A stretch of DNA of 64,000 nt from assembly GCA_964504305.1 (NCBI GenBank), contig CAZDEB010000003.1, positions 87,213 to 151,212 on the forward strand, written 5' to 3'. The first letter of the stretch is position 1. Each line of letters opens with the position of its first letter. The DNA comes from an uncultured Candidatus Nemicrothrix sp. (GTDB taxonomy: Bacteria > Actinomycetota > Acidimicrobiia > Acidimicrobiales > Aldehydirespiratoraceae). The translations under genes were made by a program, and so were the position numbers. Below are positions 38,473 to 63,831 of the stretch, piece by piece. Below the pieces are notes generated by a model, which worked only from the letters and a program-made list of their open reading frames with translations, did no database searches and was not told the DNA's origin.

Positions 38473-38874
38473 GTGATTTCGATCGCTCCAACCGCTCGCT
38501 CCAACTTGGTCGATCATTGTCGAGCCGAGCTGCCCAACGAGGCGTGCGGTCTGCTCATCGGGAACGCCGAGGACCAACGCATTGATCGTTTCGTGCCGCT
38601 GACCAACGTGGCTGCCTCACCCACCCGATTTGTGTTCGACGGGGCCGAGCAGCTCGCGGCCGAACGCCACGCGGAAGACGCCGGCCAGACAATTGTGGGA
38701 GTCGCTCACTCGCACCCCGAGGGCGACAACGCGCCGTCGGCGGTCGACGTTGGTGATGCCAAACGTTTCGACCCGTTCGGGGTGTGGTGGCATCTGGTGG
38801 TTTCGCCCCGGTCGGGTTCGGTGCGGGCGTTTCGGATCGGCCCCGAAACCGTGGTCGAGTTGGACCTGGCTTAG
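38473..38874 (+). CDS. stand-alone JAMM/MPN-family (M67) metalloprotease
   Basis: Catalytic Glu context NEACGLLIG and JAMM motif HSHPEGDNAPSAVD (HxHx7Sx2D); 133 aa. Confidence 0.85.
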   Translation: MISIAPTARSNLVDHCRAELPNEACGLLIGNAEDQRIDRFVPLTNVAASPTRFVFDGAEQLAAERHAEDAGQTIVGVAHSHPEGDNAPSAVDVGDAKRFDPFGVWWHLVVSPRSGSVRAFRIGPETVVELDLA

Positions 38875-39311
38875 CCGAGAACCGTCGCCGATCGAGTCCG
38901 GGTGATGGTGGTCGAGCTGAGGTTGCCCGGCAGCGCGGGGGCGATGATGAAATCGACCCGAAGCTGAAGGGTCACGGTCACCACCGGTGGTTGACCGGAC
39001 GCTTGGGCGATATCTACGGCTATAACGCGGGCCGATGGCAGCTCGCTCAAGGCAACCGAGTCGGCGACGATCGTTTGAGCACGGCTCGGGTTGATCGCGA
39101 TCGAGCCGTTGTTTCGGAGGGCGGCGATGTCGAGCGCGGCGAGCGCGTCGTTGGCCGCCGACGACGCAACCGCGTCGAGTTCGCGCCCCCGCACCTGGCT
39201 TAGCGAGATGTCGATGGTGATGGCGCCGAGAATTACCATGATCAACATGGCGGCCGGAAACAACAACAGCACCGTTCCCCGCTCGTTCGCGGGCCCTGGT
39301 TGGGCTAGCAC
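38871..39311 (-). CDS. TadG/TadE-like pseudopilin (Tad_N-type N-terminus)
   Basis: NERGTVLLLFPAAMLIMVILGAITIDISL. Last gene of the tad operon. The GTG start overlaps the upstream gene by 7 nt. Confidence 0.7.
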   Translation of the reverse strand: MLAQPGPANERGTVLLLFPAAMLIMVILGAITIDISLSQVRGRELDAVASSAANDALAALDIAALRNNGSIAINPSRAQTIVADSVALSELPSARVIAVDIAQASGQPPVVTVTLQLRVDFIIAPALPGNLSSTTITRTRSATVLG

Positions 39312-39766
39312 TGGGCTGGTCCTGGAAGGCCGCTACGGAACGGGTCGATGAGTTCGGTGTGGGTTGATTGCACCGCGGCGAGTTGTCCAAAGCCGCCGAG
39401 GAAGGGGATGGCCAGGGCGGGCACTTGGTAGCTGACGGTGATCCGTACGCGTCCGCACCGGGAGAAACCGGTAGGCAGAACCGGGTCCGCGATAGTCGAG
39501 CGTGGCCCGCCGCGCCCGTACGAGTCGAGCGATTCGGTGGCCCGCAGTCGGGCCGTGGCGACGCCGGTGGCGATATCGGGGGCTTCGACGAACGCACGAG
39601 TTGCTTCGCGGGCCGCGCTTGTGACGGCGAGCTTGGCGTCGATTACTCCCCAGACGTTGGCGAACAGCAAGGTCACGGCGACAAAGATCAAAAAGCCGAA
39701 CGGCAACACTTCGATCCCGCCGACTTGGCCGCCGTCGCCCTTGCACGGTCGAGCGATCATCGCCAT
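39305..39766 (-). CDS. TadE-like pseudopilin
   Basis: GGIEVLPFGFLIFVAVTLLF resembles the TadE N-terminal motif. ATG 39766, or ATG 39760 as an ATGA overlap. Confidence 0.7.
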   Translation of the reverse strand: MAMIARPCKGDGGQVGGIEVLPFGFLIFVAVTLLFANVWGVIDAKLAVTSAAREATRAFVEAPDIATGVATARLRATESLDSYGRGGPRSTIADPVLPTGFSRCGRVRITVSYQVPALAIPFLGGFGQLAAVQSTHTELIDPFRSGLPGPAQC

Positions 39767-40170
39767 CCCTCGACCCGGACAACGATCGTGCGATCAAGGT
39801 GTCCCAGCGACAAGAGCCCGGCCATTCGTGGCGGAAGAATCGTTGGATGGTTGGCGACGATCCGAACCGATACGGCATCGGGATCGGTGCAAGTCCATTC
39901 GAGCTGTGCGTATCCGGCCCGTCCGTATTGGCCGAGGGTTTCGACGAACAACCCATCGGCCGCGGCCGTGGCGCCGCACCGGTCGGCGGACGCGTTGTAA
40001 CCGGCGACGGTGGTCGCTGCTTCTCGAGCCGCGGACGTGACCATCGATGTGGCGTACAGGTTGAAGAGGATTTGCACGGCCGCGATCATCAACAGCAAGA
40101 ACACGAGGAAGGCCGCGCTGAGGCCGACCATCCCGGTGCCTCGGTCGCCGATGAGACGAGGGTGACTCAC
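39757..40170 (-). CDS. TadE/G-like pseudopilin
   Basis: DRGTGMVGLSAAFLVFLLLMIAAVQILF. GTG 40170 overlaps the pilin TGA (GTGA). Confidence 0.65.
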   Translation of the reverse strand: MSHPRLIGDRGTGMVGLSAAFLVFLLLMIAAVQILFNLYATSMVTSAAREAATTVAGYNASADRCGATAAADGLFVETLGQYGRAGYAQLEWTCTDPDAVSVRIVANHPTILPPRMAGLLSLGHLDRTIVVRVEGWR

Positions 40171-40400
40171 CCGCCGGCGGTGCCGATGCGGTTTACTTCG
40201 CCTTCGATGCTCGTTTCGGCGTTGCCCCAGATGCGGTCGAACGCGACCCACATCGCTGCGCCGATGAATGCGGTTATCAGTACGGCAATGGCGGTGCTGA
40301 TAACTCCTTCGCCTCGATCGCTGACCATGCGGCCGGTGCGTCGGTTGACGGCGCTGACCAGCATTTGAATTTCCATCCAGGTTTGGGTGGTGATGCTCAT
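40167..40400 (-). CDS. small Flp/DUF4244-like pilin candidate
   Basis: 77 aa. AGGAG lies 6 nt before ATG 40400. Basic leader, then DRGEGVISTAIAVLITAFIGAAMWVAF. Sits at the flp position between tadC and the tadE-like genes. Confidence 0.6.
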   Translation of the reverse strand: MSITTQTWMEIQMLVSAVNRRTGRMVSDRGEGVISTAIAVLITAFIGAAMWVAFDRIWGNAETSIEGEVNRIGTAGG

Positions 40401-40434
40401 TTTGTGCTCCTCTTTCGAGATCTTTGATGGTTGG

Positions 40435-41337
40435 TTAGGCGCCGAACAATGTGAGTGCGTCGATGAAGGGCACCCCCATCAACAAAACGCCAGGGATGAG
40501 CGCCGCGACGGTCACAGGAATCCAGACCTGTTGGTTGCGGCGTTCTATCGATTCGATGAGTTCGCGTTGTACTTCCCGGCGAACTGAGCGGGCCTCGTCG
40601 GAGATAAGCCGGCCGAGGTCGGCGGCTTCTCGGTTGAGGGCGAGAACGGAGATCAGACGATCGAGACTGTCGACATCGGCAAGAGTTCCCCACTCTCGCA
40701 GGGCGTCGACCTCTGATAGTCCTTGGCGCATGCGTTGGATTACTCGGGCTAGGTCGGCCGAGCACGCTCCGGTGCCCCGAGACGACACGCGGGCGAGAGC
40801 GGCTCCGAGCGACCAACCGGCCGACGTGAGCATTCCGAGTTGTTCGGCGACGACCGGAAGCTCCAGAAACAGACGCCGTTGCCGTGCTGTCGAGGCCGCT
40901 ACGACTTGTTGTTCCAAGAGAAGAAACGTCAGGATCGGAGCTCCTAGAACCACCAGCATCGCTAGAGCGGCCGGTGCCGCGAAGGCAACCGTGCCGAGCA
41001 CGGCCAGCCCGAACACCGCGCTGGCCCAGCTGAGTTGACGCATCCGAAACGTGGTGACGTCGAGCGGCGAATGGATCCGTCGCAGGCGGGTGCCGAGCTC
41101 TTCGCTGACCCCGAATAGTTTGGCGAGCTTTTCGCCCACCGAATGCGACAGTGGCGCGATGACTTCGCGAAACGAGGCAACCGACAGCACGCCGAGATGA
41201 CCGGAACGGGTGCCGACCGGAGCGAACGGGCTCAGCCGATCGGCCAACGAGGGACGGCGAAACCAACGTAACTCCGAGAGGACGAGGGTCAACCCGACAA
41301 ATCCCACCAGGGCGCACAGAACAAGGGCACGACTCAT
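40435..41337 (-). CDS. tadC: type II secretion system F-domain protein (TadC)
   Basis: T2SSF-like membrane protein. ATG 41337 shares one nucleotide with the tadB TGA (TGATG). The listed start 41397 would overlap tadB by 61 nt. Confidence 0.8.
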   Translation of the reverse strand: MSRALVLCALVGFVGLTLVLSELRWFRRPSLADRLSPFAPVGTRSGHLGVLSVASFREVIAPLSHSVGEKLAKLFGVSEELGTRLRRIHSPLDVTTFRMRQLSWASAVFGLAVLGTVAFAAPAALAMLVVLGAPILTFLLLEQQVVAASTARQRRLFLELPVVAEQLGMLTSAGWSLGAALARVSSRGTGACSADLARVIQRMRQGLSEVDALREWGTLADVDSLDRLISVLALNREAADLGRLISDEARSVRREVQRELIESIERRNQQVWIPVTVAALIPGVLLMGVPFIDALTLFGA

Positions 41338-42221
41338 CAGCGAAACACCCGGTCCTGCTCTGGCAGGCGCATAACGGCGCCGGCCCATGTCCAGCATCCA
41401 ATTACCATCAACAAGGCGACGAGCACGACGCCTTGCCCGACTGCTGTTTGGTAGGCGGCGCGGCCGTTGCCGATCGACATTCCGGCCAGCGCCATTCCTG
41501 CGGGGACAGCCAGAACGAATACGCGTGCAAAGCGGGCACCAGCCTGACGAGATCGGGCGTCTTTGCGTCCCTGCACATCGCTCAGGCGATCGTCGGCGAG
41601 GGCTTCGAGGCGACGGTCCAAGTCGCCGCCGCCCAACTCGTGGGCGATGAGCAGCGTCTCACACGCCATGTCGGCAGTGGGATCCGAGAGCCGGTCTTTC
41701 AGGACTTGGATGGTCTGAACAAAGTCGGTCGTAAGGAGCCACTCGCGGTGCGCAGCCTCGAACGCCGGCTGCAGTTCTTCGGGACCGCGGCGTCCGACAT
41801 CGAAAATTGCATGGGGGATCGAGCGGCCCATCGAACTGGTTTGCACGCGGATTTCTTCGATCATCCGGGGCCAAGCTTCTTGCGCCCGTTGGCGACGGGT
41901 CTGGCGGCGCAAGCGGTACGAGGCAACCGGAAACGACGCCGCGAACGAGCCGAGCACCAGGGCCGGGAACGGGCCGCCGAAGATGGCAAAGCCGACTACC
42001 GCTCCAAGGACAAACAACATGGCGACAACGGCAAAGAACTCGCGCGGGTCGACTTCTTCGAGGCCGGCCTGGTTGAGCCAAGCTCTCAGATCGTGGCGGC
42101 GGCGTTCTGGTTGGGCTTCGAGCCGAGGCCCAAATCCCAATCCGTTCCAGCGGTACGCCAGGGCGGTGTAGAGCCAATAGACGCCAAGGGCGGCGCTCAG
42201 AGAAACGACGAGTGCGGTCAC
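41337..42221 (-). CDS. tadB: type II secretion system F-domain protein (TadB)
   Basis: T2SSF-like. The GTG start overlaps the tadA TGA (GTGA). Confidence 0.8.
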   Translation of the reverse strand: MTALVVSLSAALGVYWLYTALAYRWNGLGFGPRLEAQPERRRHDLRAWLNQAGLEEVDPREFFAVVAMLFVLGAVVGFAIFGGPFPALVLGSFAASFPVASYRLRRQTRRQRAQEAWPRMIEEIRVQTSSMGRSIPHAIFDVGRRGPEELQPAFEAAHREWLLTTDFVQTIQVLKDRLSDPTADMACETLLIAHELGGGDLDRRLEALADDRLSDVQGRKDARSRQAGARFARVFVLAVPAGMALAGMSIGNGRAAYQTAVGQGVVLVALLMVIGCWTWAGAVMRLPEQDRVFR

Positions 42222-43519
42222 GATGCCCCCAGCGCGCCGACGGTTTCGTGCAGGTCGATCCCGGCATCGGCGAACGAACGACCAACCCTGGTTGGTAGGT
42301 CACCGGACCATTCGAGGTTTCCGTCAACGCCCGACCGGACGAACACATCGGTTGCGGTGAAGTTTGTGGCCTCGGCTCCTGCGGCGCTGTCTTCTACGCA
42401 AACGATCGACCCGACTCGCGGTCCATCGGCCGTGCGCACACAATGAACAACAACGTCCACCGCTTCGCTCACCAAACTGTTGAGTGCCGACATGGGCAAC
42501 TCGTTGCTGGTGTCAGATAGTTGGCAGATGAAGCGCAGACGGGTCAGGGCCTGTCGGGCCGAGCCCGCATGAATCGTGGTGAACCCTTTGACACCCGACG
42601 ACAAGGTCAGCAGCAGCGGTAGCGCTTCTCGGTCTCGGACTTCGCCCACGATGGCCACGTCGGGGGCCATACGCAAGAACCCGGCGACAAGACGGCGTAG
42701 GTCGACTTCGGGGCGATCCGACCGGGCCGCACGGGTCTGCATGCTGGCAACGTTGGGGAGCGGGATGTCGGCCTCGAACACTTCTTCAGCCACGACAACG
42801 CGAAGCCCGGGATCTAGTTCGGCCGCGCAACAGTTGAGCATTGTTGTTTTGCCCGCACCGGGAGCCCCGGCGAACACGATCGTTTGGCGGGCCTTGACAC
42901 AGCTCCGCAGAAACGTTGCCGCTTGGCTGGTCAGCATGCCGCGGTCGACAAGTTCTTCGAGGCTGCGAAAGGTCACGCCGGTGAACTTGCGGATGTTGAC
43001 CATCACGTGACCACCGCGCGCTACGTCGCCATGGACAATGTGGAGTCGGGCCCCGTCGTCGAGTTGGGCGTCTTGAAGCCCTTCGCTCGGGTCGAGTTTG
43101 CGATGAGCGGTCGACGCGTCGTCAAGAATCTTGGTAAGCGTGCGGATCACGTGCTCGTCGTCGTGAAACACCTCGTCGTGGTAGCCGCTCGGACCGCTAT
43201 GGCGCTTCACGAAGATCGCGTCGGGCGCGTTGATCATCACTTCCCAAACGTCGTTGTCGTCCAGCAGCGGCCCGAGGGGCCCGTAGCCAACGAGGTTGCG
43301 CATCGCTCGTTCGGTCACCAGGTCGGCATCGTTGAGGGGGTAGTCGCGTGTGCCCAGGCGGAACTCGTCGTTCCAGCGCGAGATTTCGTCGCAAACCAGG
43401 TCGTGCAAGATGGCTTGACTGGCGGCGTGGTCGAGATCGATGGCGTCGTCTTTGGCTCGCTGCTGAACGCGTTGTTCGATTTCGGCGAGTGGGGTAGAGG
43501 GACTGTCGATGATGCTCAT
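42218..43519 (-). CDS. tadA: CpaF/TadA secretion ATPase
   Basis: Walker A GAPGAGKTT and the VirB11/T2SSE architecture. ATG 43519 overlaps the upstream TGA (ATGA). Confidence 0.92.
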   Translation of the reverse strand: MSIIDSPSTPLAEIEQRVQQRAKDDAIDLDHAASQAILHDLVCDEISRWNDEFRLGTRDYPLNDADLVTERAMRNLVGYGPLGPLLDDNDVWEVMINAPDAIFVKRHSGPSGYHDEVFHDDEHVIRTLTKILDDASTAHRKLDPSEGLQDAQLDDGARLHIVHGDVARGGHVMVNIRKFTGVTFRSLEELVDRGMLTSQAATFLRSCVKARQTIVFAGAPGAGKTTMLNCCAAELDPGLRVVVAEEVFEADIPLPNVASMQTRAARSDRPEVDLRRLVAGFLRMAPDVAIVGEVRDREALPLLLTLSSGVKGFTTIHAGSARQALTRLRFICQLSDTSNELPMSALNSLVSEAVDVVVHCVRTADGPRVGSIVCVEDSAAGAEATNFTATDVFVRSGVDGNLEWSGDLPTRVGRSFADAGIDLHETVGALGAS

Positions 43520-44802
43520 TCGGAGTCCTGCGTCCATGACCCGAGCGAACCCGGCACCACCGCCAACGGTTCGGCAATCACCGCGGAAAGACGACGGGGG
43601 ATGCGATCGAGCCGGGCCTGCACCTCGGCGTATAGAGATTTGCCGAGCGATGGCGGAAGCGGTACACCGTCGCGTAGCGCCATCTCGAGGTCGCGTCGTT
43701 GCGGCACCAGCACGGCCGGATTCGCGTTGTCTTCGACGCTGGCCAGCTTGGCCAGGGCATCGGCAGATTCGGCGCGGCGGCGTCGTGACCTTGGGACACG
43801 ATTGACAACCGGCACCAGTCGCTCGGCGTCGATTCCGAAGGCTGTCAGCTCTCGTAGGTTGCGGGCCAGACTGTGAATGCCCTTGGTGGTCGCGGTTCCG
43901 ACCACAATCACGAGGTCGGCTTGCCTCAGCGTTGTACGAGACAAGCTATTGCGGTCCTCCACGTCGATGGACCCGGTCTCTTCCTCGCCCTCGATATCGA
44001 TGTCGACATCAGCAACGACCACGCGGTAAGCCCGAAGTAGCGCGTCGATGGAGGCTTCGAGAGCCCGAGGGCGTAGCACAGTCCAGTCGCGATGGCGCCG
44101 CAGGCCGAGCAAGAGGTGATAGCCGCGATCGGGGACATCGAACACCAAGTCGCGGACGTCGGCGATGCTCAGGCGCCCCCGTCGGTGAGCCTCGGTCAGT
44201 TCCTGCAGACCGGGAATGACCTCTTGGGTGTCGTGAAGCATCGCAAGATCAGCGTTGAGGGCGAGGTCGGCCAAGGCCACCAGCCCTCGGTTGCTGGCGT
44301 CGGCGCCAATGGCCTGAGCCAGCGCCATCGCCGCCGTTGACGAACCGGTTCCGCCGGCGCCGGTCACTGCTACCAATCGACCGCGCCAACCAATATCGGG
44401 TTCGACAACGTCGGTGGCGATGGTGGGAGCCACTCGGCTGATCGGAGGTGCGTATTCGTCGAGCGCGGCCATGAGATCGGCTCGCTCGAACTGGGCCGGT
44501 AGGTGGCCGCTGACCCCGAGTTCGCGCCAGTCGCGGTTGGTCATGGCATCGACCACGATCACCGCCGCGCCGGTTGTGACCGTGGTGTCGATCAGGTCGC
44601 GGTCGAGTCCGCCGACGTCGCCGCCCACCAGCAACGCCGAGAATGATCGTCCGCCCGACAATCTGGCTCGCACTTCGTCGGGCGATACGCACTTGACGAA
44701 GTCGACGGGCACCGCGGCGGCCGTTGACCAGCGGGCCAGTTCGCTGAACCACGCAGCGCGTGGGTGAGCGAGTCCGAGCACTACCCAACGATCTTCGTTC
44801 AT
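43516..44802 (-). CDS. CpaE/TadZ-like (actinobacterial Ssd-type) ParA/MinD-fold protein with degenerate P-loop
   Basis: Pseudo-receiver-like N-terminus. ParA-fold region with VAVTGAGGTGSSTAAMALA in place of KGGxGK[ST]. ATGA overlap with cpaB. Confidence 0.8.
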   Translation of the reverse strand: MNEDRWVVLGLAHPRAAWFSELARWSTAAAVPVDFVKCVSPDEVRARLSGGRSFSALLVGGDVGGLDRDLIDTTVTTGAAVIVVDAMTNRDWRELGVSGHLPAQFERADLMAALDEYAPPISRVAPTIATDVVEPDIGWRGRLVAVTGAGGTGSSTAAMALAQAIGADASNRGLVALADLALNADLAMLHDTQEVIPGLQELTEAHRRGRLSIADVRDLVFDVPDRGYHLLLGLRRHRDWTVLRPRALEASIDALLRAYRVVVADVDIDIEGEEETGSIDVEDRNSLSRTTLRQADLVIVVGTATTKGIHSLARNLRELTAFGIDAERLVPVVNRVPRSRRRRAESADALAKLASVEDNANPAVLVPQRRDLEMALRDGVPLPPSLGKSLYAEVQARLDRIPRRLSAVIAEPLAVVPGSLGSWTQDSE

Positions 44803-45518
44803 CGGACCGGCTCCAGCTTGGTGCTGACTGTTGCTGGGAAGACATCGTCGAGAGCTCGGGTGGATCGCACGATCGTGATGTCGGCCACCTGGGTGAGATG
44901 GGCGATTTCCATCACTACGGCGGGGTCATCGACGCCAAGAGTCAGAACCCCTCGACCGCTCGACCCGAGCTGGTCCGGGGTTGTGTCGATGGCCAGCACT
45001 ACTGCGTCCTCGACCGCCAGGCTGGTGGTGTCGGCGATAGTCGCCAAAATCGTGACGCGATCGCCGGCCAGCAGCGTCGGCGGGGTGCGATCGAGAGGAA
45101 TCCCGAAACTGATCTCGTGGATCTGGCCCATGGCCGTGCCGTCGAGCATGGGGGCGGCGCTGAAGTCGGCAGTGGTGAGCAGCTCGCCCGGTCGGATATC
45201 ACGCAATGCCGTGGCCCCTTGGAGGCCCTCGGTCGAGTTGAGCGCGGTAGCGGCGAGTTGGGGGCTGAGAGTCATCAGCTGAGCCTCGACCGATGTGAGC
45301 GACACCGATTCACCCACCGAAATCGCCGAGGTGGACACGAGATAGTGAGTAACCGGTCCGTCGGTACCGCGTTGGGTTGCGGCGAACGCGCCCAAGGCCG
45401 CGAGCGTCACGAGAAGGGCCCCGATCAACGCTCGACTGTTGGGCAGCGATCGCCGACCAGTGAGCACTCGCAGTGGATTGGGGCGTGAACTGTCGCCATC
45501 GGTGATCGGTATTGCCAT
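44799..45518 (-). CDS. cpaB: CpaB/RcpC-like SAF-domain pilus assembly protein
   Basis: N-terminal TM (ALIGALLVTLAALGAFAA) followed by SAF-like repeats. Start placed at ATG 45518, with GAGGGAG 5 nt upstream; the listed GTG 45557 lacks a well-spaced SD. Confidence 0.72.
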   Translation of the reverse strand: MAIPITDGDSSRPNPLRVLTGRRSLPNSRALIGALLVTLAALGAFAATQRGTDGPVTHYLVSTSAISVGESVSLTSVEAQLMTLSPQLAATALNSTEGLQGATALRDIRPGELLTTADFSAAPMLDGTAMGQIHEISFGIPLDRTPPTLLAGDRVTILATIADTTSLAVEDAVVLAIDTTPDQLGSSGRGVLTLGVDDPAVVMEIAHLTQVADITIVRSTRALDDVFPATVSTKLEPVR

Positions 45519-45620
45519 TTGCACTCCCTCAGCGCCGGATCGGAGCAATTTCGCCACGCTCCGTGGTTATTCGTAAACCAAACCATACCGAAGAACATGA
45601 AATGGTGCTATACAGTCTTT
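45519..45620. promoter_or_regulatory. AT-rich divergent intergenic region between the tad operon and the HTH gene
   Basis: 45567..45620 is 19 G+C of 54 nt by hand count, in an otherwise high-GC window. It lies between two divergently transcribed units. Confidence 0.45.
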
Positions 45621-48853: not shown

Positions 48854-50110
48854 GTGGCAAAGTTCGGTGAGGGTGGAGAACTTCTGAAGTGCTCCTTTTG
48901 CGGCAAGTCGCAAAAGCAGGTCAAGAAACTCATCGCTGGTCCAGGGGTTTACATCTGCGACGAGTGCATCGATCTCTGCAACGAGATCATCGAAGAAGAG
49001 CTGGCCGAAACCACCGATGTCAGCCTTGGCGAACTTCCGTCTCCACGCGAAATCTATTCGTTCCTCAACGACTACATCGTTGGCCAAGACACCGCTAAGC
49101 GGATCTTGGCGGTAGCGGTTTACAACCACTACAAACGGATCGAACTGGGCACCACCCTCGACGGCGACGTCGAGTTGTCCAAGTCCAACATCTTGTTGAT
49201 CGGCCCGACTGGCTGCGGCAAAACCCTCATGGCCCAGACCCTGGCCCGCATGCTCAATGTTCCGTTTGCGATCGCCGATGCCACCGCCCTCACCGAAGCC
49301 GGCTACGTCGGTGAGGACGTCGAGAACATCCTGCTCAAGCTCATCCAGGCCGCCGACTACGACGTCAAGAAGGCCGAGACCGGCATCATTTACATCGACG
49401 AGATCGACAAGGTGGCTCGCAAGAGCGAGAACCCATCGATTACTCGCGACGTATCCGGCGAAGGCGTGCAGCAGGCCCTCCTCAAGATTCTCGAAGGCAC
49501 CAGCGCCGCAGTCCCGCCCCAGGGCGGGCGTAAACATCCGCACCAAGAGTTCCTGCAGATCGACACCTCCAACGTGCTGTTCATCTGTGGTGGAGCGTTC
49601 GCCGGAATCGAAAAAATCGTCGAAAGCCGGATCGGCAGCCCAGGGGTTGGCTTTGGTGCTGATATTCGCCGTCCCGAAGACAAAGACCTCGGCGCGATTT
49701 TCAACGAGGTGCTGCCCGAAGATCTCACCAAGTTTGGCCTTATCCCCGAGTTCATCGGCCGTCTACCGGTGGTGGGAGCAGTCAACCATCTCGAGCAAGA
49801 TGCCCTGGTCGAGATCCTCACCGAGCCGCGCAACGCGCTGATCAAGCAGTATCGCAAGATCTTCGAGTTCGAAGACGTCGAACTCGAGTTCACGCCCGAA
49901 GCGCTCGACGCGATTGCTGACGAGGCGATCAAGCGGGCGACCGGCGCTCGCGGCCTGCGGGCCATCCTCGAAGAGACGTTGCTCGAAACCATGTACGAGA
50001 TTCCGGGGCGCGACGATGTCGCCAAGGTGATCGTCACCGCCGAGACCGTGCTCGAACGGGCCGCTCCGACTTTTGTCGCACCTGGCGCCGAAGGCCGCCG
50101 AGCGAGCTGA
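48854..50110 (+). CDS. clpX: ATP-dependent Clp protease ATP-binding subunit ClpX
   Basis: C4 zinc finger CSFCGKS...ICDECI and Walker A GPTGCGKT. Confidence 0.97.
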
Positions 50111-50124
50111 TCGTCTAGCGCGTC

Positions 50125-51423
50125 ATGCAATACCAAGAGGCGCTTGCTCATCTCGATGCGCTGACCAACTACGAGATCACGCCCCGAGCCGGAGCAATCG
50201 ACGGATTGTCTATCGCCCCGATCCAGCAGATCATGACTGCCTTGGGCGATCCCCACACTGCTTATCCGGTCATACACGTAACCGGCACCAACGGGAAAGG
50301 TTCCTCGATCCGGATGATCGAGGGCCTTATTCAGGCCATGGGACTACGGGCGGGGAGCTACACGAGCCCGCATCTCGAAACCGTCAACGAACGAATTCGG
50401 GTGGGCGCAGAGACCATTGGCGACGAAGACTTCGCACGGGCCGTGGGCGATGTCGCTCTCGCGGTCGAGTCTGGCTTGGATGGTTCGGCGACGTGGTTCG
50501 AGACGGTCACGGCCGCCGCCTTCCTTCATTTCGCCAACGAGGCAATTGATGTTGCGATCATCGAGGTTGGTTTGCTGGGCCGCTTCGACGCCACAAACGT
50601 TGTTCGCGCCGATGTCGCCGTAGTCACCAACGTCGGACTCGACCACACCTCGGGCGAGGGCGATTGGCGAGCGAGAGTTGCGGGGGAGAAGGCCGGAATT
50701 ATCGAGCCGACGTCGGTGCTGGTTCTCGGCGAACTCGACGCGGCAACGAGGCCGATATTTGATACCGAAGGCGCTCGACGAACGGTCGAACGAGGCACAG
50801 ATTTTGAAGTAACCGAAGATCTGCTGGCCGTCGGTGGACGTCTGATCGGCCTGCGCACGCCGCGAGGCCTGTACGACGATGTGTTCTTGAACCTTCACGG
50901 AAGTCATCAGTCAGACAACGCCGCGCTGGCTCTGGCCGCGACCGAGGAGTTCTTCGATCGTGCGTTGCCCAACGACGTAGTCGAGGAAGCATTCGGGTCG
51001 GTCGAAATGCCAGGGCGCCTCGAGATCGTTCATCGTTCGCCGACGGTGGTGATCGACACTGCCCACAACGTCGCTGGTGCAACAGCTCTTGCTCAAAGCA
51101 TCGAAGCCGATTTCAACCAAGGCGGGCGCAAGTTCTTGCTGCTTGGTATGCAGGACGGACGCGTTGCTTCGGACGTTTGCGAGGCGCTGAGGGTCAGGGA
51201 CTATCACCTCGTCGTTGCCTGTACGGCGCCTACCCAACGCGGTGTTGACGCCCAAGCCGTTGCCGAAGCGGTCGGCGCAGCCGGCGGAAACGTCGACGTC
51301 GCGAGCAACGTCGAGGCGGCCATCGATCACCTGATGGCCCAGGCCGAGGACGACGATCTGATTGTGGTCGCCGGGTCCAACACCGTGGTTGGAATTGTGC
51401 GGAACATATCTACAGAGTTCTAG
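50125..51423 (+). CDS. folC: folylpolyglutamate synthase/dihydrofolate synthase
   Basis: Mur-ligase P-loop [10 protein letters not shown]; typical length. Confidence 0.9.
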
Positions 51424-51489
51424 GGCTTCAGGAGAAATAGGTAATCCGGCCCATGAAGTCGCCATACGGGGGCGGTCGATAGTCCTCGT

Positions 51490-52245
51490 GTGAGATTTCT
51501 GTCTACTTTACGCGGCCGGCTTGGTCGGCCCCAGCGCGTTCGGGCCCGGCGCGCCCGCGGCGACAGGGGCGTCACCGGTGTCGAGTACACGCTGATCCTG
51601 GCGGCCATGGTTACCGGGAGCACCGCCACCTTCCAGCTGATGGATAACCGGGTCGAGGAGCACTACGTCAACACCGCCGAAGACGTGAGCCAGATCGACC
51701 TCGCCTATTTCGACGTGACCACCACGGTCGACCCGAACGCCGCCTCGACAACCACGACCGCGGCACCCACGACGACCACGACCGCGGCTCCCACGACAAG
51801 TGCCGCGGCATCGAGCACCACCTCCACGTCCACATCGACCACCACAACCACCGCCGCTCCCACCACTACCACCACCGCGGCGCCGACGACCACGGCGGCG
51901 GCCACCACGACTACCACTGTGGCAACCGAAAGCAGCGAGATCGATTGGTCGGATCGGTCGAGTTGGCGCAGCGGTTGCGGCTGCTATCGGGCGAAGACGA
52001 AGCTCAAGATCAAGGACGACGACGGCGACAAGCTCACCTCGGCCGACGTAGCGGTGATCTTTACGTTGAGTGATGGCAGCGAGTACGCCGGATCGGGCAC
52101 AACAAACAGCAGCGGTAAGGTCGGTTTCAGCCTCAGTGGCTTGAGTTCTTCGGACTTCGACGTGGTGGTCACGATTACGTCGATTGTCGGCAACGACGGA
52201 ACGACGTACTCGCCAGATATCGCGTCGTTCACCCTCACCACCTGA
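51490..52245 (+). CDS. prepilin-like protein: Flp/TadE-class signal + Thr/Ala-rich linker + beta-sandwich-like C-terminal domain
   Basis: GTG 51490 is the only in-frame start. Arg-rich leader, then GDRG|VTGVEYTLILAAMVTGSTATF (Gly -1, Glu +5, Tyr +6). A T/A/S/P stretch spans aa 84-146. The C-terminal ~100 aa has alternating beta-strand-like patterns (KLKIKDDDGDKLTSADVAVIFTL...SSGKVGFSLSGL...DVVVTITSI). Confidence 0.6.
   Translation: MRFLSTLRGRLGRPQRVRARRARGDRGVTGVEYTLILAAMVTGSTATFQLMDNRVEEHYVNTAEDVSQIDLAYFDVTTTVDPNAASTTTTAAPTTTTTAAPTTSAAASSTTSTSTSTTTTTAAPTTTTTAAPTTTAAATTTTTVATESSEIDWSDRSSWRSGCGCYRAKTKLKIKDDDGDKLTSADVAVIFTLSDGSEYAGSGTTNSSGKVGFSLSGLSSSDFDVVVTITSIVGNDGTTYSPDIASFTLTT
51739..51927 (+). 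repeat. low-complexity ACN/GCN coding repeat (Thr/Ala/Pro/Ser linker)
   Basis: Reiterated TTTT(T)AAPTT peptide units encoded by imperfect accacgaccgcggc[at]cccacgac-type repeats. Confidence 0.8.
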
Positions 52246-52269
52246 GCCGAGGGGCGATAGCCTCCGAAC

Positions 52270-52677
52270 ATGGATCGCACTCTTGTCATTTGTAAGCCCG
52301 ACGCCGTCGAGCGAGGCCTCGTTGGCGAAATTCTGGGCCGGCTCGAGACCAAAGGTTTTGCCATCGTCGCCGCCGAGCTGCGAACCCTCGACCACGCCAC
52401 ACTGGCCCGCCACTACGAGGAACACGTTGGCAAGCCGTTCTATGACGGCCTCGTCGAATTCATGAGTCGCGGCCCGGCCCTGGTTGCCGTCATCGAAGGC
52501 CCCGAAGACACTTGGAAGTCGGTGCGCCAGATCATGGGTGCGACCAATCCACTCGATGCCGCGCCCGGCACCATCCGAGGCGACCTCGGCACTTTGTTCA
52601 CCGAGAACCTGATCCACGGTTCCGACTCTCTCGAGTCCGCGGAACGCGAGATCTCGATATTCTTTCCCGGCCTCTGA
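52270..52677 (+). CDS. ndk: nucleoside-diphosphate kinase
   Basis: Canonical NDK (RTLVICKPDAVERGLVGEI...) with the catalytic His in NLIHGSDS. Confidence 0.96.
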   Translation: MDRTLVICKPDAVERGLVGEILGRLETKGFAIVAAELRTLDHATLARHYEEHVGKPFYDGLVEFMSRGPALVAVIEGPEDTWKSVRQIMGATNPLDAAPGTIRGDLGTLFTENLIHGSDSLESAEREISIFFPGL

Positions 52678-52848
52678 GCCCCAGTAAGAGGCTGATCGCC
52701 GTCCCACCAAGAGTGAGCTGGTTGCCGCGCTAGGTAAAAGTGTTGCAATTTGGTGACCGTTTGCGCCTACACTTTGCCCAAGCGGCTGGAGACCCGACGG
52801 GTCATTCGTTCTTTGCCGCCCCCAATTTCTCTCATCGAGGCTTCTCCT

Positions 52849-53898
52849 ATGGTTGCTGACCGTCTACTCCAAAGCTTTGGCGCAGTGGTAGGTCGCGACA
52901 TGGCGGTCGACCTCGGCACCGCCAACACTCTGGTGTACGTGCGCGGCGAAGGCATTGTTCTCGACGAACCGTCCGTGGTCGCCATAAACACTGTGGACGG
53001 CAAACCCCTCGCTGTTGGTGTCGAAGCCAAACGAATGATCGGGCGCACGCCGTCAAACATTCAAGCGATTCGCCCGCTCAAGGATGGCGTGATCGCCGAT
53101 TTCGAGATTTGCGAAAAAATGTTGCGCTACTTCATCCAGAAGGTGCACCAGCGCAAATGGGCGAAACCTCGCATGGTTGTCGCGGTCCCATCTGGCATCA
53201 CCGGTGTCGAGCAGCGCGCCGTGCAGGAAGCCGCCGAGTACGCCGGTGCTCGCAAACCGGCTTACATTATCGAAGAACCGATGGCCGCGGCTATCGGGGC
53301 CGGCCTCCCGGTGCAAGAGCCGACTGGCAACATGATCGTCGACATCGGCGGCGGGACCACCGAAGTGGCCGTCATTTCTCTCGGCGGCGTAGTAGCGAGC
53401 CAATCTGCTCGGGTTGGTGGCGACGAACTCGACAACGCCATCATTCAGTACTGCAAGAAGGAATACAGCCTCGCGCTCGGCGAACGTACCGCCGAGGAGA
53501 TCAAAATGCAGCTGGGTTCGGCGTGGCCGCTCGAACAAGAACTCAAGGCCGAGATTCGTGGCCGCGACCTTGTGTCGGGCCTGCCTCGCACGATCGTTGT
53601 TAGCACCGCCGACATACGAGAGGCTCTCGATGAGCAGGTCTCGGCAATTTGCGATGCGGTCAAATCCACACTCGACAAGACACCCCCCGAGCTCGCGGCC
53701 GACATAATGGATCGTGGTATCACCATCGCGGGCGGAGGCGCTCTGCTCACTGGCATCGACGCCCGTCTCAACGACGAGACCGGAATGCCGATCAAGCTGG
53801 CGCCCGATCCGCTTTACGCGGTGGCGATCGGTTCTGGTCAGGTCCTAGAAGAATTCGAAGCACTGCGCGGCGTGGTCCTGAGCTCGGGCGAGCTCTAA
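52849..53898 (+). CDS. mreB: rod shape-determining protein MreB
   Basis: Actin-fold motifs [18 protein letters not shown] and GGGALL. Start set at ATG 52849. Confidence 0.95.
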
Positions 53899-53907
53899 CC
53901 CAGACCA

Positions 53908-54837
53908 ATGGCGCTGGCCCAGCGCACGGGGCGATCTCGACGCCGACTCATCTTGTTGGTGCTTTCGGCGATCACCCTGCTGACCCTCGACCTCGGCAGC
54001 TTCGGCCCGCTTGGCTCCGCCCAGCGACTGTTCCGCGACTTTCTGCACCCGGTCACCAATGTGGCCGGAGCGGTGGCGACGCCGTTTGCCGACGCATGGA
54101 ACGCGGTGTTCGATTACAGCGACCTTCAAGCCGACTACGCCGAGCTAGAGGCCGAGCGCAACGAGCTGAAGGGGCAAGCCCTCAGCGTTGAGGCTGAGCG
54201 AGCGGCCTTTCAGCGATTGCTCGACGCAACCCAGATCACCTATGTGACCGCGGTGGACAAGCAGGCCGCCACCGTTGTACGTGGTGCGGTGGGTAATTTC
54301 GACTCTGACGTGATCACCATCGACAAAGGCTCCCAAAGCGGTATCGAAACCGGGATGGCCGTAGTAACCGCCGCGGGGTTGGTTGGGCGTATCGATCGGG
54401 TCGACGCAACCACCGCGACGGTTCAGCTCCTCAGCGATCAGAATTTGATCATCGGTGTGCGGATGACCTCAACCGAGCAGGTCGGACTCGGTCATACCGA
54501 CAAGAGCGATCCGCTGATCTTCGAAATTGACCAAGGTCTCGATTGGCCCGAAGACAACGATCTTTCGTTGTTGCCCAAGGTTGGCTCGGTCGTGGTCACC
54601 GCGGCCAGCAGCCGATATCCGGCCGAGATTCCGATTGGGCGGGTTATCGAGTCGGTGAATCCCGATGGCGAAGGTCTATCGCTCACCGTCCGGGTCGAGA
54701 TGGCCAACGACGTAACCAACCTCGGCTACGTAACGGTATTGCTGGCTCCCGGGGTCGATCAGGTTCCTTTGGGTCCAGTTGTGCCGAGCACGAGCGTGCC
54801 TCTTGACATTGTCGAAAACGACGGTGCAGGCCAATGA
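53908..54837 (+). CDS. mreC: rod shape-determining protein MreC
   Basis: N-terminal TM, a coiled-coil (LQADYAELEAERNELKGQ) and beta-barrel domains; position after mreB. Confidence 0.85.
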   Translation: MALAQRTGRSRRRLILLVLSAITLLTLDLGSFGPLGSAQRLFRDFLHPVTNVAGAVATPFADAWNAVFDYSDLQADYAELEAERNELKGQALSVEAERAAFQRLLDATQITYVTAVDKQAATVVRGAVGNFDSDVITIDKGSQSGIETGMAVVTAAGLVGRIDRVDATTATVQLLSDQNLIIGVRMTSTEQVGLGHTDKSDPLIFEIDQGLDWPEDNDLSLLPKVGSVVVTAASSRYPAEIPIGRVIESVNPDGEGLSLTVRVEMANDVTNLGYVTVLLAPGVDQVPLGPVVPSTSVPLDIVENDGAGQ

Positions 54838-55328
54838 GCCTTCCGGTCCGCGTCGGCGCGGTTTTGATACTGGCGCTGGTGGTGCAGCTCACGGTATTTG
54901 TTGATGTTCGGGTGGCCGGTGTCGCGCCCGAGTTGCTTACGTTGGTTGCGGTAATTGCCGGGTTCTTCGTCGGACCCGATCGTGGGCCGGTTATCGCCTT
55001 CGCCGCTGGCCTCATCTGGGACATGTACCTGCCGTCGCCGCTCGGAGTCTCTGCGGTCACGCTGGCTTTGGTGGCCTTTGCGGTGGGATCGCTCGAAGAG
55101 GGATTGTTTCATGACAGTCGGAGTCAATTGATTGCAGTTGCCGGACTCGCCAGCGCGGCTGCAGTAGTGAGTTATGCCTTGGTGGGCGAGTTGGTTGGTG
55201 TTCGCGGCCTCATCGACCTCGACATGTTGCGAGTTGCGCTAATCGTCGGGGTGCTCAACGCCGCGCTCTCGCCGGTGGCGGCCCCGATCATGGAGTGGGC
55301 CCTGCGGGGCCAGGCGGACCGCCGATGA
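54834..55328 (+). CDS. mreD: rod shape-determining protein MreD
   Basis: Small five-TM protein. Overlaps the mreC stop and the mrdA start. Confidence 0.7.
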   Translation: MSLPVRVGAVLILALVVQLTVFVDVRVAGVAPELLTLVAVIAGFFVGPDRGPVIAFAAGLIWDMYLPSPLGVSAVTLALVAFAVGSLEEGLFHDSRSQLIAVAGLASAAAVVSYALVGELVGVRGLIDLDMLRVALIVGVLNAALSPVAAPIMEWALRGQADRR

Positions 55329-57454
55329 ATCCCGATCAGCAGCTTCGTTTGCGGATCTTTGCGTTCCTTGCCCTCACTTTGCTTGGCGGCTTGGTTGCCC
55401 GACTGTGGTACTTGCAAGGCATCGAAGCGCAGCGCGAGCAGTTCAAAAATGCCGCTCTGACCAATGTGTTGGTGCCGGTGCACGAAGAGGCTCCTCGCGG
55501 CAGGATCCTCGACCGCAACGGGCGGGTGCTCGTCGAGAACCAGGTAGTCCAGGTCGTCACCGTCGATCGGGCCGTGGTCGACGAACTCGACGCTCAGGTC
55601 CGCTCCGATATGTTCCTGCGACTCGCCATTGCCGTGAGTCGATCGGGTCGTCTGGTGAAGGTCGACCGGATACTCGACGAGTTCACCGATCTCTCCTATG
55701 GCCCGTTCGAGCGCATACCGGTGGCCGTCGACGTGAACCCGGAGCTGCTGGTGTTTCTGGGCGAACGCACCGACCAATTTCCTGGTGTCGAAGTCTCCCA
55801 GCGCACGGTTCGCAGCTACCCATACGGGTCGTTGGCCGCCCATATCCTTGGGTACGTCGGTCCGATAAATCGCACCGAGTGGGAGGCCGCCAATGAACGG
55901 ATCGATCCGACCGCGGAGGGTGCCAAGACCTATCAACTCAACCACGAAATCGGAAAAACCGGCATCGAGCGAGTCTTCGAAGACGAGCTGCGGGGCACAC
56001 CAGGGACCCGATACCTAGAGGTCGATGCGTCTCGAAGGTTCGTGAGCGAGTACAAAGATCGACGAGTCGAACCGATTCCGGGCAACGATGTTTACCTCTC
56101 GATCGATATCGACCTCCAGGCATTGGCCGAGGCCGAACTGCGTGACGGACTCGATGCGGCAAGGGCCCGAGAACACGATCCCGACGAGCCGCCGTTTGTT
56201 GCTTCGGCGGGCAGCGTGGTTGCTCTTGATCCCAAGAACGGGGACGTCTTGGCCATGGCTTCGTTCCCAACGTACGCACCGGCCGACTTTGTCAGCGGAA
56301 TATCGGCGACGCAGTTTCATGAACTGACTTCCGAATCGAACTTTTCGCCGATCCTGAACCGGGCGATACAAGGTACGTACGCGCCTGGCTCGACCTTCAA
56401 GCTGGTAACGGCCCTTGCCGCGGTCGAGGAAGGGGTTATCGGGCCGGGACTCGAGGCCATTCGCGACACCGGCGAGCTCTATCTCGACACCGGCACCTAC
56501 ACCTACTCGGGTTGTTTCGAGGAATCCAGCACCTGTAAGTTTCGTAGCCCTTTCAGTGGCGAGCAGTGGGTCGACTTGGGGCGGGCACTGACCGTGTCGA
56601 GCGATACCTACTTCTACGAAATCGGCGGCGAAGGGTTTTGGCGGCGCCCCAACGAACCCGACCAAGATGGCAACTTAAAAGACGAGGGCATCCAAAAGTG
56701 GGCTCGCGAGTTGGGCCTGGGATTCGATTCGGGGGTGCAGCTGCCGTACGAACGTTCGGGTGCCGTTCCTGATAGGGCCTACTACGACCAACAATACGAG
56801 GACGGCGTGTTCGTAATCGACGGCTCTGAGTGGTTCGCCGGGGCCACGATCAACCTGTCGATCGGGCAGGGTGAGCTTCTTGTGACTCCTCTTCAGTTGG
56901 CCAACACCTACGCCACGTTCGGCAACGGGGGGCGGCTCCACCAACCCAACATGGTCAAAGAGGTCCGCACAACCAGCGGCGAACTGGTTCGAGCCTTCGG
57001 TCCGCGAGTGTTGAGAGACCTCGAGATCCCGGTCGAGTTCCATTCCGCTATCGAGTCGGGGCTGCTCGGAGTAACAAGTCGCCAGGGAGGCACGGCCCGT
57101 CGGGTTTTTGCCAACGCCGACTTCTCACTCGCTAGCTGGCCTATCGCTGGTAAGACCGGTACCGCCCAGGTCAGGGGCAAAGCCGATACCTCCATTTTCG
57201 CGGCTTACGGACCAGTTGCAACCGAGTCATCGGGTCTCCCCGCGGGGCGCGAACCCGACGTGGCGATAGCGGTCCTGCTCGAAGAAGCCGGATTCGGATC
57301 GGCCGCCGCCGCGCCGGTCGCGGCCGCAATTTTCGAAAGAGTTGCGACCGGTACCGTGCCTCATGCTCGATCGCTGGACGAGACGGCGCGCTACAACCAA
57401 GAACTCGTCGCCGCGGGATCAGCCGGAACCGCTGATGAGGTGGCGTTGGGATGA
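55325..57454 (+). CDS. mrdA: penicillin-binding protein 2 (elongasome transpeptidase)
   Basis: SxxK (APGSTFK) and KTG (AGKTGTAQ). ATG 55325 overlaps the mreD TGA (ATGA). Confidence 0.9.
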   Translation: MNPDQQLRLRIFAFLALTLLGGLVARLWYLQGIEAQREQFKNAALTNVLVPVHEEAPRGRILDRNGRVLVENQVVQVVTVDRAVVDELDAQVRSDMFLRLAIAVSRSGRLVKVDRILDEFTDLSYGPFERIPVAVDVNPELLVFLGERTDQFPGVEVSQRTVRSYPYGSLAAHILGYVGPINRTEWEAANERIDPTAEGAKTYQLNHEIGKTGIERVFEDELRGTPGTRYLEVDASRRFVSEYKDRRVEPIPGNDVYLSIDIDLQALAEAELRDGLDAARAREHDPDEPPFVASAGSVVALDPKNGDVLAMASFPTYAPADFVSGISATQFHELTSESNFSPILNRAIQGTYAPGSTFKLVTALAAVEEGVIGPGLEAIRDTGELYLDTGTYTYSGCFEESSTCKFRSPFSGEQWVDLGRALTVSSDTYFYEIGGEGFWRRPNEPDQDGNLKDEGIQKWARELGLGFDSGVQLPYERSGAVPDRAYYDQQYEDGVFVIDGSEWFAGATINLSIGQGELLVTPLQLANTYATFGNGGRLHQPNMVKEVRTTSGELVRAFGPRVLRDLEIPVEFHSAIESGLLGVTSRQGGTARRVFANADFSLASWPIAGKTGTAQVRGKADTSIFAAYGPVATESSGLPAGREPDVAIAVLLEEAGFGSAAAAPVAAAIFERVATGTVPHARSLDETARYNQELVAAGSAGTADEVALG

Positions 57455-58623: not shown

Positions 58624-58694
58624 CGCTATGCGGTGTCGCGGCCACCGGACGTAGCATTCACCCAGTACCGCGGGCGCGCCGATAGCCTGCGCAG

Positions 58695-61408: not shown

Positions 61409-61447
61409 TTGATCTCTTAGCGGTGCCCAATACGAAAGACGATAATC

Positions 61448-63217: not shown

Positions 63218-63264
63218 TGAGTTAGAGCGCTAATGCGCCTTGGCGCCGCTACGATAGACGCTCT

Positions 63265-63573
63265 ATGTACGCAGTAGTAAAGACCGGCGGCAAACAGTAC
63301 CGCGTGGAAGAGGGCCAGACCCTCGAGGTCGACCGTACCGGCGAGCCCGGTGCCGAAATCTCCCTTCCCCCGCTTCTGGTTGTCGACGGTGAGACCGTCC
63401 TCGCCACTCCGGACCAGCTTTCCAAAGCTTCGGTCACGGCTCGTGTTGTCGAGGAGACCAAGGGCCCGAAGATCAACGGGTTCGTTTATAAGAACAAGTC
63501 GAATAACCGGAAACGATGGGGCCACCGCGCGGCGCTGACCCGTATCGAGATCACCGGTATCAAGAAGGGCTGA
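63265..63573 (+). CDS. rplU: 50S ribosomal protein L21
   Basis: MYAVVKTGGKQYRVEEGQ... is canonical. Confidence 0.97.
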   Translation: MYAVVKTGGKQYRVEEGQTLEVDRTGEPGAEISLPPLLVVDGETVLATPDQLSKASVTARVVEETKGPKINGFVYKNKSNNRKRWGHRAALTRIEITGIKKG

Positions 63574-63579
63574 TTCCAC

Positions 63580-63831
63580 ATGTCAAAGACAAAAGGTGGC
63601 GGTTCTACCCGTAACGGCCGCGATTCGAACTCCCAGCGCCTCGGCGTCAAGGTGTACGACGGCGGCGTTGTCAACTCTGGTGCCATCATCGTGCGCCAGC
63701 GTGGCACCCGGATTCATCCCGGCGAGAATGTCATGAAGGGTGGCGACGACACTTTGTTTGCTACCTCCGCCGGCAAAGTCAAGTTCGGTAGCCGCAAGGG
63801 CCGCAAGCTCGTCGACGTGCTTCCCAACTAG
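63580..63831 (+). CDS. rpmA: 50S ribosomal protein L27
   Basis: [22 protein letters not shown]... is canonical. Confidence 0.97.

Follow-up and report, generated by a model that had tools for sequence, protein, structure and literature searches.

A candidate bimodular Flp-type prepilin in the folC–ndk interval of an uncultured Candidatus Nemicrothrix sp.

Pilins of the Flp type are made as precursors of 50–80 amino acids (aa), are all-helical and have no globular domain (PMC10710030; PMC3244431; PMC12075869). What, then, is encoded by a gene that begins like one of them and continues for much longer? The gene in question lies in a 64,000-nucleotide stretch of contig CAZDEB010000003.1 (positions 87,213 to 151,212), from an uncultured Candidatus Nemicrothrix sp.; this whole stretch is called the window, and positions are counted from its first letter. 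Direct reading gives an open reading frame (ORF) at 51490–52245 on the plus strand, with a GTG start and 251 aa plus the stop codon. The protein has four parts, namely a leader, the sequence GDRG/VTGVEY followed by a helix, a linker rich in T, A, S and P, and a beta-sandwich (here and below a slash marks the predicted cleavage site). Our analysis indicates that the gene probably encodes a bimodular prepilin of the Flp (type IVc/Tad) type, which would display a binding module on a Tad filament.

The GC content of third codon positions (GC3) in this ORF is 0.80 and that of first positions (GC1) is 0.48, as fits a real coding gene in a window of 61% GC. There is no in-frame alternative start codon before Met40, which is inside the helix, and the homologues P0002, P0004 and P0005 start at the position aligned with the start of the window ORF. 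A preliminary description of this DNA, made from the letters alone, had reported an Arg-rich leader of 27 aa, Gly at −1, Glu at +5, Tyr at +6 and a helix, then a T/A/S/P stretch and an SGCGCY motif, in an ORF between folC and ndk that is far longer than known Flp pilins. Direct reading and Pfam searches recovered all of these features, and the length of 251 aa stands against 50–80 aa.

The N-terminal Flp module and its predicted processing site

The leader of the window protein is 27 aa long, Arg-rich and ends in GDRG. Gly27 occupies position −1, Glu32 position +5 and Tyr33 position +6, and they are followed by LILAAMVTGSTATF; the N-terminal stretch after the leader reads VTGVEYTLILAAMVTGSTATF. 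Tyr59, which is conserved, and a D-[IV]-[GS] motif lie in the amphipathic part of the module. No other G-x4-E-[YF] motif with a following helix was found in the six frames of the window.

A profile of the N-terminal module was searched against all PDB sequences. Its sole matches at E<1 were two Tad pilins of Caulobacter, 8U1K (E 2.4e-5) and 8U2B (E 4.5e-4). Of their 45 mature residues, 1–42 are aligned, and the alignment begins directly after the conserved Gly. Because it spans residues 1–42/45 of the Caulobacter pilin PilA, residues 28–69 of the window protein correspond to a whole mature Flp subunit, and because it begins at mature residue 1 of PilA, the cleavage site predicted here falls where the subunits of a real filament begin. 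Gly27/Val28 is the predicted cleavage site of a prepilin peptidase. At E≤0.01, 25 of 46 family members match the Pfam family Flp_Fap (PF04964), the best of them at 5e-6, and homology of the N-module to the solved Tad pilins is supported at the family level. TadE (PF07811) gave no match at E≤10, either with the whole window protein or with residues 1–60. The motif had earlier been ascribed to Flp pilins and TadE/F pseudopilins alike; Flp_Fap supports the Flp part at the level of the family and scores below its cut-off on the window protein alone, and for the TadE part no match was seen.

Sequence constraint at the processing site was surveyed in 156 family-size proteins, using a search pattern that left positions −1 and +5 free. 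Position −1 was Gly in 143 proteins and Ala in 13, and nothing else occurred there. Position +5 was Glu in 156/156, and Tyr at +6 was kept across 156/156 of these divergent relatives. The motif logo of the family is [ED]-R-G/A-T-x-V-E-Y-A-L. Mutagenesis of the Pseudomonas pilin reportedly showed that prepilin peptidase accepts Gly at −1, with Ala as the only tolerated substitute. The restriction to Gly or Ala at −1 and to Glu at +5 matches prepilin-peptidase specificity, and this disfavours a plain membrane anchor. Leaders of homologues upstream of the motif have a median length of 17 aa (range 5–35), so that the homologues begin upstream of the motif and not downstream of it, in agreement with the start used in the preliminary description. 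A few gene calls that start at M/VEYAL look like truncated predictions. The proteins with Ala at −1 form a subgroup with ERA/ATLVEYAL, which includes P0139, P0145, P0147, P0170, P0177, P0184, P0194, P0199 and others.

The linker, the Ig-like domain and the protein family

The linker of the window protein is 69 aa long (29–73 aa in all family members), and its residues 81–145 comprise T33, A17, S7 and P5 of 65. AlphaFold2, run with a 46-sequence alignment of the family, predicted one long helix at residues 30–66 with a block-mean pLDDT (predicted local distance difference test) of 51–76, disorder at residues 67–145, and a nine-strand beta-sandwich of the immunoglobulin (Ig)-like type at residues 146–251 with pLDDT 96–98. 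The linker had pLDDT 44–60 and no secondary structure, and it gave a weak match to the Pfam family Mucin. The Thr-rich linker is probably O-glycosylated. A mucin-like linker and a beta-sandwich-like domain are what the preliminary description had read from the sequence.

The Pfam family Big_1 (PF02369) matched the C-terminal domain (C-domain) of the window protein with 21.9 bits (E 1.9e-4), below its gathering threshold of 34.9, and it matched 9 of 46 family members (best 2.8e-5). Invasin_D3 also scores on the window C-domain, and the best PDB sequence match of the C-domain profile is intimin, at E 0.13. Foldseek with the full model against the PDB returned generic Ig-like sandwiches only, with a target-normalised TM-score (TMt) of about 0.5 and a best E of 2.4e-4; they included ApaG, MG domains of alpha-2-macroglobulin, integrin domains, Ig-like domains of GH2 and a domain of the CLIPPER adhesin. 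Such generic matches yield no functional inference. The C-domain is found beyond pilin-like proteins: it is repeated 4–44 times in proteins that range from 600 aa to giants of up to 5620 aa, and is also present in non-Flp proteins such as P0062 and P0080. It therefore appears to be a generic extracellular module of the adhesin type.

The preliminary description had compared the last part of the protein with carboxypeptidase-regulatory-like and Ig-like folds. The Ig-like comparison agrees with AlphaFold2 and Big_1, whereas CarboxypepD_reg (PF13620) was not among the matches of the window protein at E≤10 and is carried only by P0089, a distant non-Flp protein. SSGKVGFSLSGL, quoted in the same description, is present in the window protein. 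SGCGCY is kept only in the nearest relatives (P0002), with SCYCY in P0003 and WCDCP in P0012, and it was ruled out as a feature of the family. More distant clades have instead a conserved Cys pair (SCTT...GRC), which is absent from the window protein.

The initial sequence search collected 58 proteins, mostly of 190–260 aa, whose organism labels, where the source gives any, are Acidimicrobiales or Acidimicrobiia. They share one plan: a basic leader, the logo with a hydrophobic helix, Tyr59, D-I-G, a T/A/P linker and a beta domain of about 105 aa. A few were automatically named 'Flp pilus assembly pilin Flp' (JGI) or 'Flp family type IVb pilin' (NCBI). Pfam and gene callers mostly leave the family unannotated or miscall it, and we met one RodZ label, one missed copy in locus L001 and several truncated starts. 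When 1.84 billion cluster representatives were searched exhaustively with a profile, 7025 of them matched at E≤1e-3, 666 at E≤1e-10 and 60 at E≤1e-30, and the best 150 of these matches are mostly full-length, with 190–260 aa. Under a strict definition of the architecture (G-x4-E-Y in the first 90 residues, a length of 150–330 aa and a 30-residue window with at least 80% T/S/A/P), 125 of the 222 collected proteins qualified. The bimodular Flp-type proteins are thus a large and undescribed family of Acidimicrobiia.

The C-domains of clades found in different genomic contexts are homologous by hhalign. Compared with the clade of the window protein, the probability was 95.8% (E 8e-9) for clade 2, which has a tadE/tadG context, 96.2% (E 2.7e-9) for clade 3, which has a folC–ndk context, and 91.4% (E 9e-7) for clade 4, again with a tadE/tadG context. 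Clades 2 and 3 matched each other at 99.6% (E 1e-23), and by this profile comparison they are close relatives despite their unlike genomic contexts. The conservation of motif and linker that the preliminary description had made a point to be checked was found, and relatives adjoin tadE/tadG in several loci. One further protein, P0087 (152 aa; E 4.3e-6 against the family profile), has a canonical Flp N-terminus, RGQG/LVEYALILVLVAVVV, and a Ser/Gly/Thr-rich C-terminal region without the T-rich linker. From the design of P0087, fusions of Flp with an additional domain may exist outside the family.

A proposed binding module on a Tad filament

Two sets of Tad genes lie near the pilin gene. An actinobacterial-type machinery locus, 5.9 kb upstream, contains SAF/CpaB-like and TadZ-like genes, TadA, TadB and TadC, a gene for a 77-aa protein, and three small TadE/G-like genes (38871–40251), which like the 77-aa gene are without canonical G/XXXXE sites. 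It is a candidate assembly machinery for the pilin. The second set was found on contig L015, which is 99.9% identical to window positions 53036–64000 over a 10,966-bp overlap and continues beyond the right end of the window with RNase E/G, L21, L27, an HD-domain gene, TadE, TadE, a TadG-like gene, obg and proB. The two TadE proteins have 196 aa with GDRG/TALIEA and 214 aa with GDAG/LAMVEF, and the TadG-like protein has 471 aa and matches PF13400 at 1.8e-8. All three are orthologous to proteins that stand beside the modular Flp gene (X) in other lineages, with about 41% identity and E of about 1e-51. The order there is X-TadE-TadE-TadG, flanked by an HD-domain gene and obg, in L007, L009 and L010, and TadG-TadE-TadE-X in L008 and L014. 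The genes adjoining the relatives in L007–L010 and L014, and the TadE genes of L015, are on record with PF07811. The preliminary description had placed a tad operon about 6 kb away, with a pilin candidate that lacks Glu5 and Tyr6, and this is what we found. It had also called the pilin-like gene an orphan. The term suits the housekeeping slot in which the gene lies, but not its wider surroundings, with the tad locus upstream and the tadE-tadE-tadG trio about 13 kb downstream.

The pathway that we propose is as follows. The Arg-rich leader would keep the N-terminus cytoplasmic, and the hydrophobic helix would anchor the prepilin in the membrane. A TadV-type prepilin peptidase of family A24, encoded elsewhere in the genome, would cut after Gly27 and leave a mature protein of 224 aa beginning with VTGVEY. 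Residues 28–76 would act as a complete Flp pilin, which the Tad machinery would extract from the membrane and pack into the helical core of the filament. The obvious candidate for this machinery is the TadA/TadB/TadC locus 6 kb upstream, and assembly may involve the TadE-TadE-TadG minor-pilin set from about 13 kb downstream. The Thr-rich stalk of about 69 aa would project outward and hold the Ig-like module of about 105 aa off the fibre, where the module might bind a ligand or a surface. In Caulobacter the C-terminal end of PilA makes up the outside of the filament (PMC10710030), and from this the stalk and the Ig-like module would be exposed on the outside. The earlier suggestion of a Flp-type pilin bearing a stalk and a displayed domain gains support from the Caulobacter alignment, the constraint on positions −1 and +5 and the linkage of relatives to tadE/tadG.

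Several observations weigh against this interpretation. Flp_Fap scores 14.6 bits (E 0.029) on the window protein alone, under its cut-off of 32.2. The gene lies outside the tad operon, in the housekeeping string folC-X-ndk-mreBCD. Searches of the 64-kb window, of about 13 kb past its ends and of the 15 loci gave no credible A24 motif (G-x-G-D-[VAIL..]-K); L006, to the left of the window, contains only FtsH and glycosyltransferase/sugar-nucleotide genes and no peptidase. The missing A24 gene counts for little, since actinobacterial tadV typically lies apart from the tad genes (PMC4322843) and since the nearby TadE proteins with canonical cleavage sites need such an enzyme too. A further point comes from L011 2335–5428 (also L012), where three consecutive genes lie between folC and ndk. 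The first encodes a 380-aa ricin-B lectin protein, whose called start is inside a comparable GYA-helix and is probably truncated. In P0056 (402 aa) a leader and an RG/VSLTGYAL helix are followed by a T-rich linker and a ricin-B lectin module; in a 249-aa protein a leader and an RG/VTLPGYAL helix precede a T-rich linker and another C-domain. The latter two follow an RG/VxLxGYAL design that keeps Tyr6 and has Gly, not Glu, at +5, so that the lectin-bearing relatives in this locus may not assemble like canonical pilins. Finally, we know of no described filament of Flp subunits with bulky C-terminal modules, and polymerisation of such subunits is therefore unproven.

Some of these observations would also be expected of an uncleaved type II signal-anchor surface protein, in which the Flp-like motif is vestigial and the helix tethers a glycosylated stalk and an Ig-like domain independently of Tad. 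N-in membrane anchors share the signature of an Arg-rich N-terminus followed by one hydrophobic helix, the available DNA yielded no A24 peptidase, and the Flp_Fap score of the window protein is sub-threshold. A mere anchor, however, would not keep Gly or Ala at −1, Glu at +5 and Tyr at +6 in all of the divergent relatives surveyed, and it would not co-localise with tadE/tadG. An unlinked tadV is the rule in actinobacteria (PMC4322843), and the TadE proteins of the same genome carry G/XXXXE[FA] sites that also call for such a peptidase. We consider a signal anchor very unlikely.

A second explanation accepts cleavage by the prepilin peptidase and dispenses with polymerisation: the protein would be a membrane-anchored or short pseudopilus-like display unit, or a substrate exported by the Tad system. 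The constraints on −1, +5 and +6 are equally expected in this case, a stalk of about 69 aa might be of the kind able to span a Gram-positive wall, and the variable C-terminal binding modules (Ig-like, ricin lectin) resemble a display platform. The location in a housekeeping operon and not in a pilus operon is in line with it, and a precedent is found in the archaeal sugar-binding proteins with class III signal peptides of the Sulfolobus bindosome (PMC4858521). On the other hand, the N-module corresponds to a complete Flp pilin over the mature Caulobacter subunit and not merely to a signal peptide. The segment after the helix (Tyr59, D-I-G), which in Caulobacter PilA is at the filament surface, is conserved across clades, and relatives are found within tadE-tadE-tadG clusters, which are typical of filament priming complexes (PMC12075869). 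These data make an unpolymerised product unlikely, and we prefer the modular pilin.

Two roles are conceivable for a modular pilin, that of the major subunit and that of an adapter or tip-proximal subunit of low abundance, and the evidence does not decide between them. The second role is possible by analogy, since the tadE-tadE-tadG neighbourhood of the relatives parallels the Kil system of Myxococcus. The first is possible because the window and the 15 loci (about 330 kb examined) contain no short canonical Flp gene, and the gene in the Flp position of the tad locus is without Glu5/Tyr6. The location in a housekeeping operon, which is likely to be constitutively expressed, points in the same direction. 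We advance only as a tentative and somewhat doubtful proposal that the modular Flp serves these Acidimicrobiia as major Tad-pilus subunit, each copy in the fibre carrying a glycosylated stalk and an Ig-like or, in sister lineages, lectin domain. If true, such a fibre would be a type IVc pilus of the 'bottle-brush' kind, its subunit would be the first Tad pilin to have a globular domain, and the archaeal design of a helix plus a beta-sandwich would have been re-created independently.

The window protein is similar to Flp/Fap pilins (Caulobacter crescentus PilA 8U1K/8U2B, A. actinomycetemcomitans Flp1) in the leader ending in Gly, Glu5, Tyr6, the Flp motif and the helix. It differs from them in running about 175 residues further, with a stalk and an Ig-like domain, and its gene is outside the tad machinery operon. 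It has the processing motif of a Flp pilin, but neither the small size nor the absence of a globular domain. Modular type IV pilins are known: Streptococcus sanguinis PilB carries a von Willebrand factor A (vWA) module and PilC a lectin module, and CofB of enterotoxigenic Escherichia coli is another example (PMC8179133). In these pilins, as in the window protein, a pilin module bears a grafted module that is not specific to pili; the modules vary and are predicted to bind ligands. The N-terminal Flp module of the window protein is joined to a C-domain that also occurs outside pilus proteins. The known modular pilins are of the T4a or T4b type, with a globular pilin module and a short linker, whereas the window protein has an all-helical Flp module of 49 aa and a mucin-like linker of about 69 aa. 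The survey of modular pilins by Raynaud et al. (2021) was built on IPR012902, and its text makes no mention of Flp or Tad (PMC8179133).

In the Kil system of Myxococcus xanthus, the TadE/F/G-like proteins KilL/M/N are tips, and the small Flp adapters KilK and KilO, whose genes belong to the tip clusters, are needed to prime polymerisation (PMC12075869). The arrangement is comparable in that a Flp-type gene stands beside a trio of TadE/TadF/TadG-like genes, as in L007–L010 and L014, and in that Tad subunits carry modules. KilO, however, is a fully helical Flp of 59 aa and KilK is similar, and the extra modules are on the TadE/G-like minor pilins and not on Flp (PMC12075869); in the window genome the Flp-type gene is about 13 kb from the tadE-tadE-tadG trio. 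Archaeal type IV pilins also combine a helix with an all-beta Ig-like domain and are often heavily glycosylated (PMC4858521). Their beta domain is packed on the helix and forms the filament surface, whereas here it would be tethered by a long disordered linker, and the 50 Foldseek matches listed include no archaeal pilin. Tad systems are thought to be derived from archaeal pili (PMC10710030). A cryo-electron microscopy study of 2023 stated that Tad pili 'depart radically' from other type IV pili, without a globular domain, and speculated on ancestral fusion or loss (PMC10710030).

Full-text literature searches found no description of a Flp pilin that continues into a linker and a globular module, in agreement with the preliminary description, which knew of no Flp-type pilin with this architecture; nor did they find a description of Tad/Flp pili in Acidimicrobiia. 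A natural family of Flp pilins with tethered Ig-like or lectin modules would extend to type IVc pili the modular-pilin principle, which until now has been catalogued for pilins of the IPR012902 type only. It would give a testable model of how the Tad pili of uncultured, environmentally abundant Acidimicrobiia gain binding specificity, and it would offer a natural template for the display of cargo on Tad filaments.

The folC–ndk slot and neighbouring features

The order folC-X-ndk-mreB-mreC-mreD-PBP2-rodA is found in the window, where mreB-mreC-mreD-PBP2-rodA follow ndk, and in L001, L002, L004/L005 and L013. The coordinates of the gene, its parts and its neighbours are collected in Table 1. 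Gaps of 66 nt and 24 nt to the flanking genes suggest that the pilin gene belongs to an operon with them. A scan for promoters and terminators at 50000–53000 gave results at chance level.

This constant position raises another explanation, a cell-envelope or elongasome accessory protein, analogous to RodZ and tied to ndk-mreBCD-PBP2-rodA rather than to pili. The gene is always directly upstream of ndk-mreB-mreC-mreD-PBP2-rodA in five independent loci, and the homologue P0016 is labelled 'cytoskeletal protein RodZ' by JGI. RodZ has an N-in topology with a transmembrane helix, a linker and a beta domain, and the window protein resembles it in this respect. The window protein, however, has only 27 residues before the helix and no Pfam domain there, and clade 2, which by its C-domain is nearest to the folC–ndk clade 3, occurs in tadE/tadG clusters far from mreB. 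RodZ itself, with its cytoplasmic, MreB-binding helix-turn-helix and its DUF4115 C-domain, was ruled out, as neither a helix-turn-helix nor a DUF4115 match is present in the window protein, and the label of P0016 is most simply explained by its low-complexity linker. A RodZ analogue is therefore extremely unlikely, and a modular pilin remains the preferred identity of the gene.

The content of the slot varies. In L001 a second member stands in tandem at 7991–8686 on the plus strand, between folC and P0010; it has 231 aa, with RDRG/ASGVEYAL, a T-rich linker and a beta domain. The gene caller missed this copy and called two short spurious ORFs. The tandem copy indicates that the slot undergoes duplication. 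In L004 a conservon-like cassette (6490–9893) lies between folC and the modular Flp gene, with genes for a HATPase_c sensor, Roadblock/LC7, DUF742 and an ATP_bind_1 GTPase, and the modular Flp gene is still directly upstream of ndk.

Table 1. Coordinates of the candidate pilin gene, its parts and associated features in the window, except where contig L015 is named.
Feature	Coordinates	Strand	Evidence or remark
Whole gene, putative bimodular Flp-type prepilin	51490..52245	+	ORF; homologues of 190–260 aa with the same architecture; GC3 0.80
Arg-rich leader, aa 1–27, ends in Gly27	51490..51570	+	Direct reading; family counts at −1; logo
Flp pilin module, aa 28–76: VTGVEY, hydrophobic alpha-1N helix, amphipathic part	51571..51717	+	PDB profile, AlphaFold2, Flp_Fap
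T/A/S/P-rich mucin-like linker, aa 77–145, predicted disordered	51718..51924	+	Composition; pLDDT 44–60
C-terminal Ig-like beta-sandwich, aa 146–251, Big_1-like	51925..52242	+	AlphaFold2, Big_1, Foldseek
SGCGCY, residues 161–166, turn between strands 2 and 3 of the C-domain	51970..51987	+	Reading; model
folC-like, upstream neighbour	50125..51423	+	Mur_ligase_C 7e-18, Mur_ligase_M 7.6e-9
ndk, downstream neighbour, 24 nt after the stop codon	52270..52677	+	NDK 4e-48
Actinobacterial-type tad machinery locus	38871..45557	-	Pfam: T2SSE 1.4e-29 (TadA), T2SSF 1.6e-8, TadE 3e-4
77-aa protein in the Flp position of the tad locus	40167..40400	-	DRGEGVISTAIAVLI, without Glu5/Tyr6; weak DUF6133 match, E 0.005
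TadE-TadE-TadG cluster	L015 12173–14891; window-equivalent ~65208–67926		About 13 kb downstream of the pilin gene, past the window edge

A 400-aa antisense ORF at 51508–52710 on the minus strand overlaps the whole pilin gene and ndk. It is most likely an artefact of high GC content, and it was rejected because the sense frame is kept in more than 100 homologues and has a GC3 of 0.80. Opposite the Thr-rich linker this ORF is rich in Gly and Arg. Just upstream of the tad locus are a transfer-messenger RNA (tmRNA) gene at 36102–36504 on the minus strand, with the tag peptide ANTDDLTLAA, and an ORF at 37937–38491 on the same strand, about 1.4 kb from the tmRNA gene, that is SmpB-like by eye.

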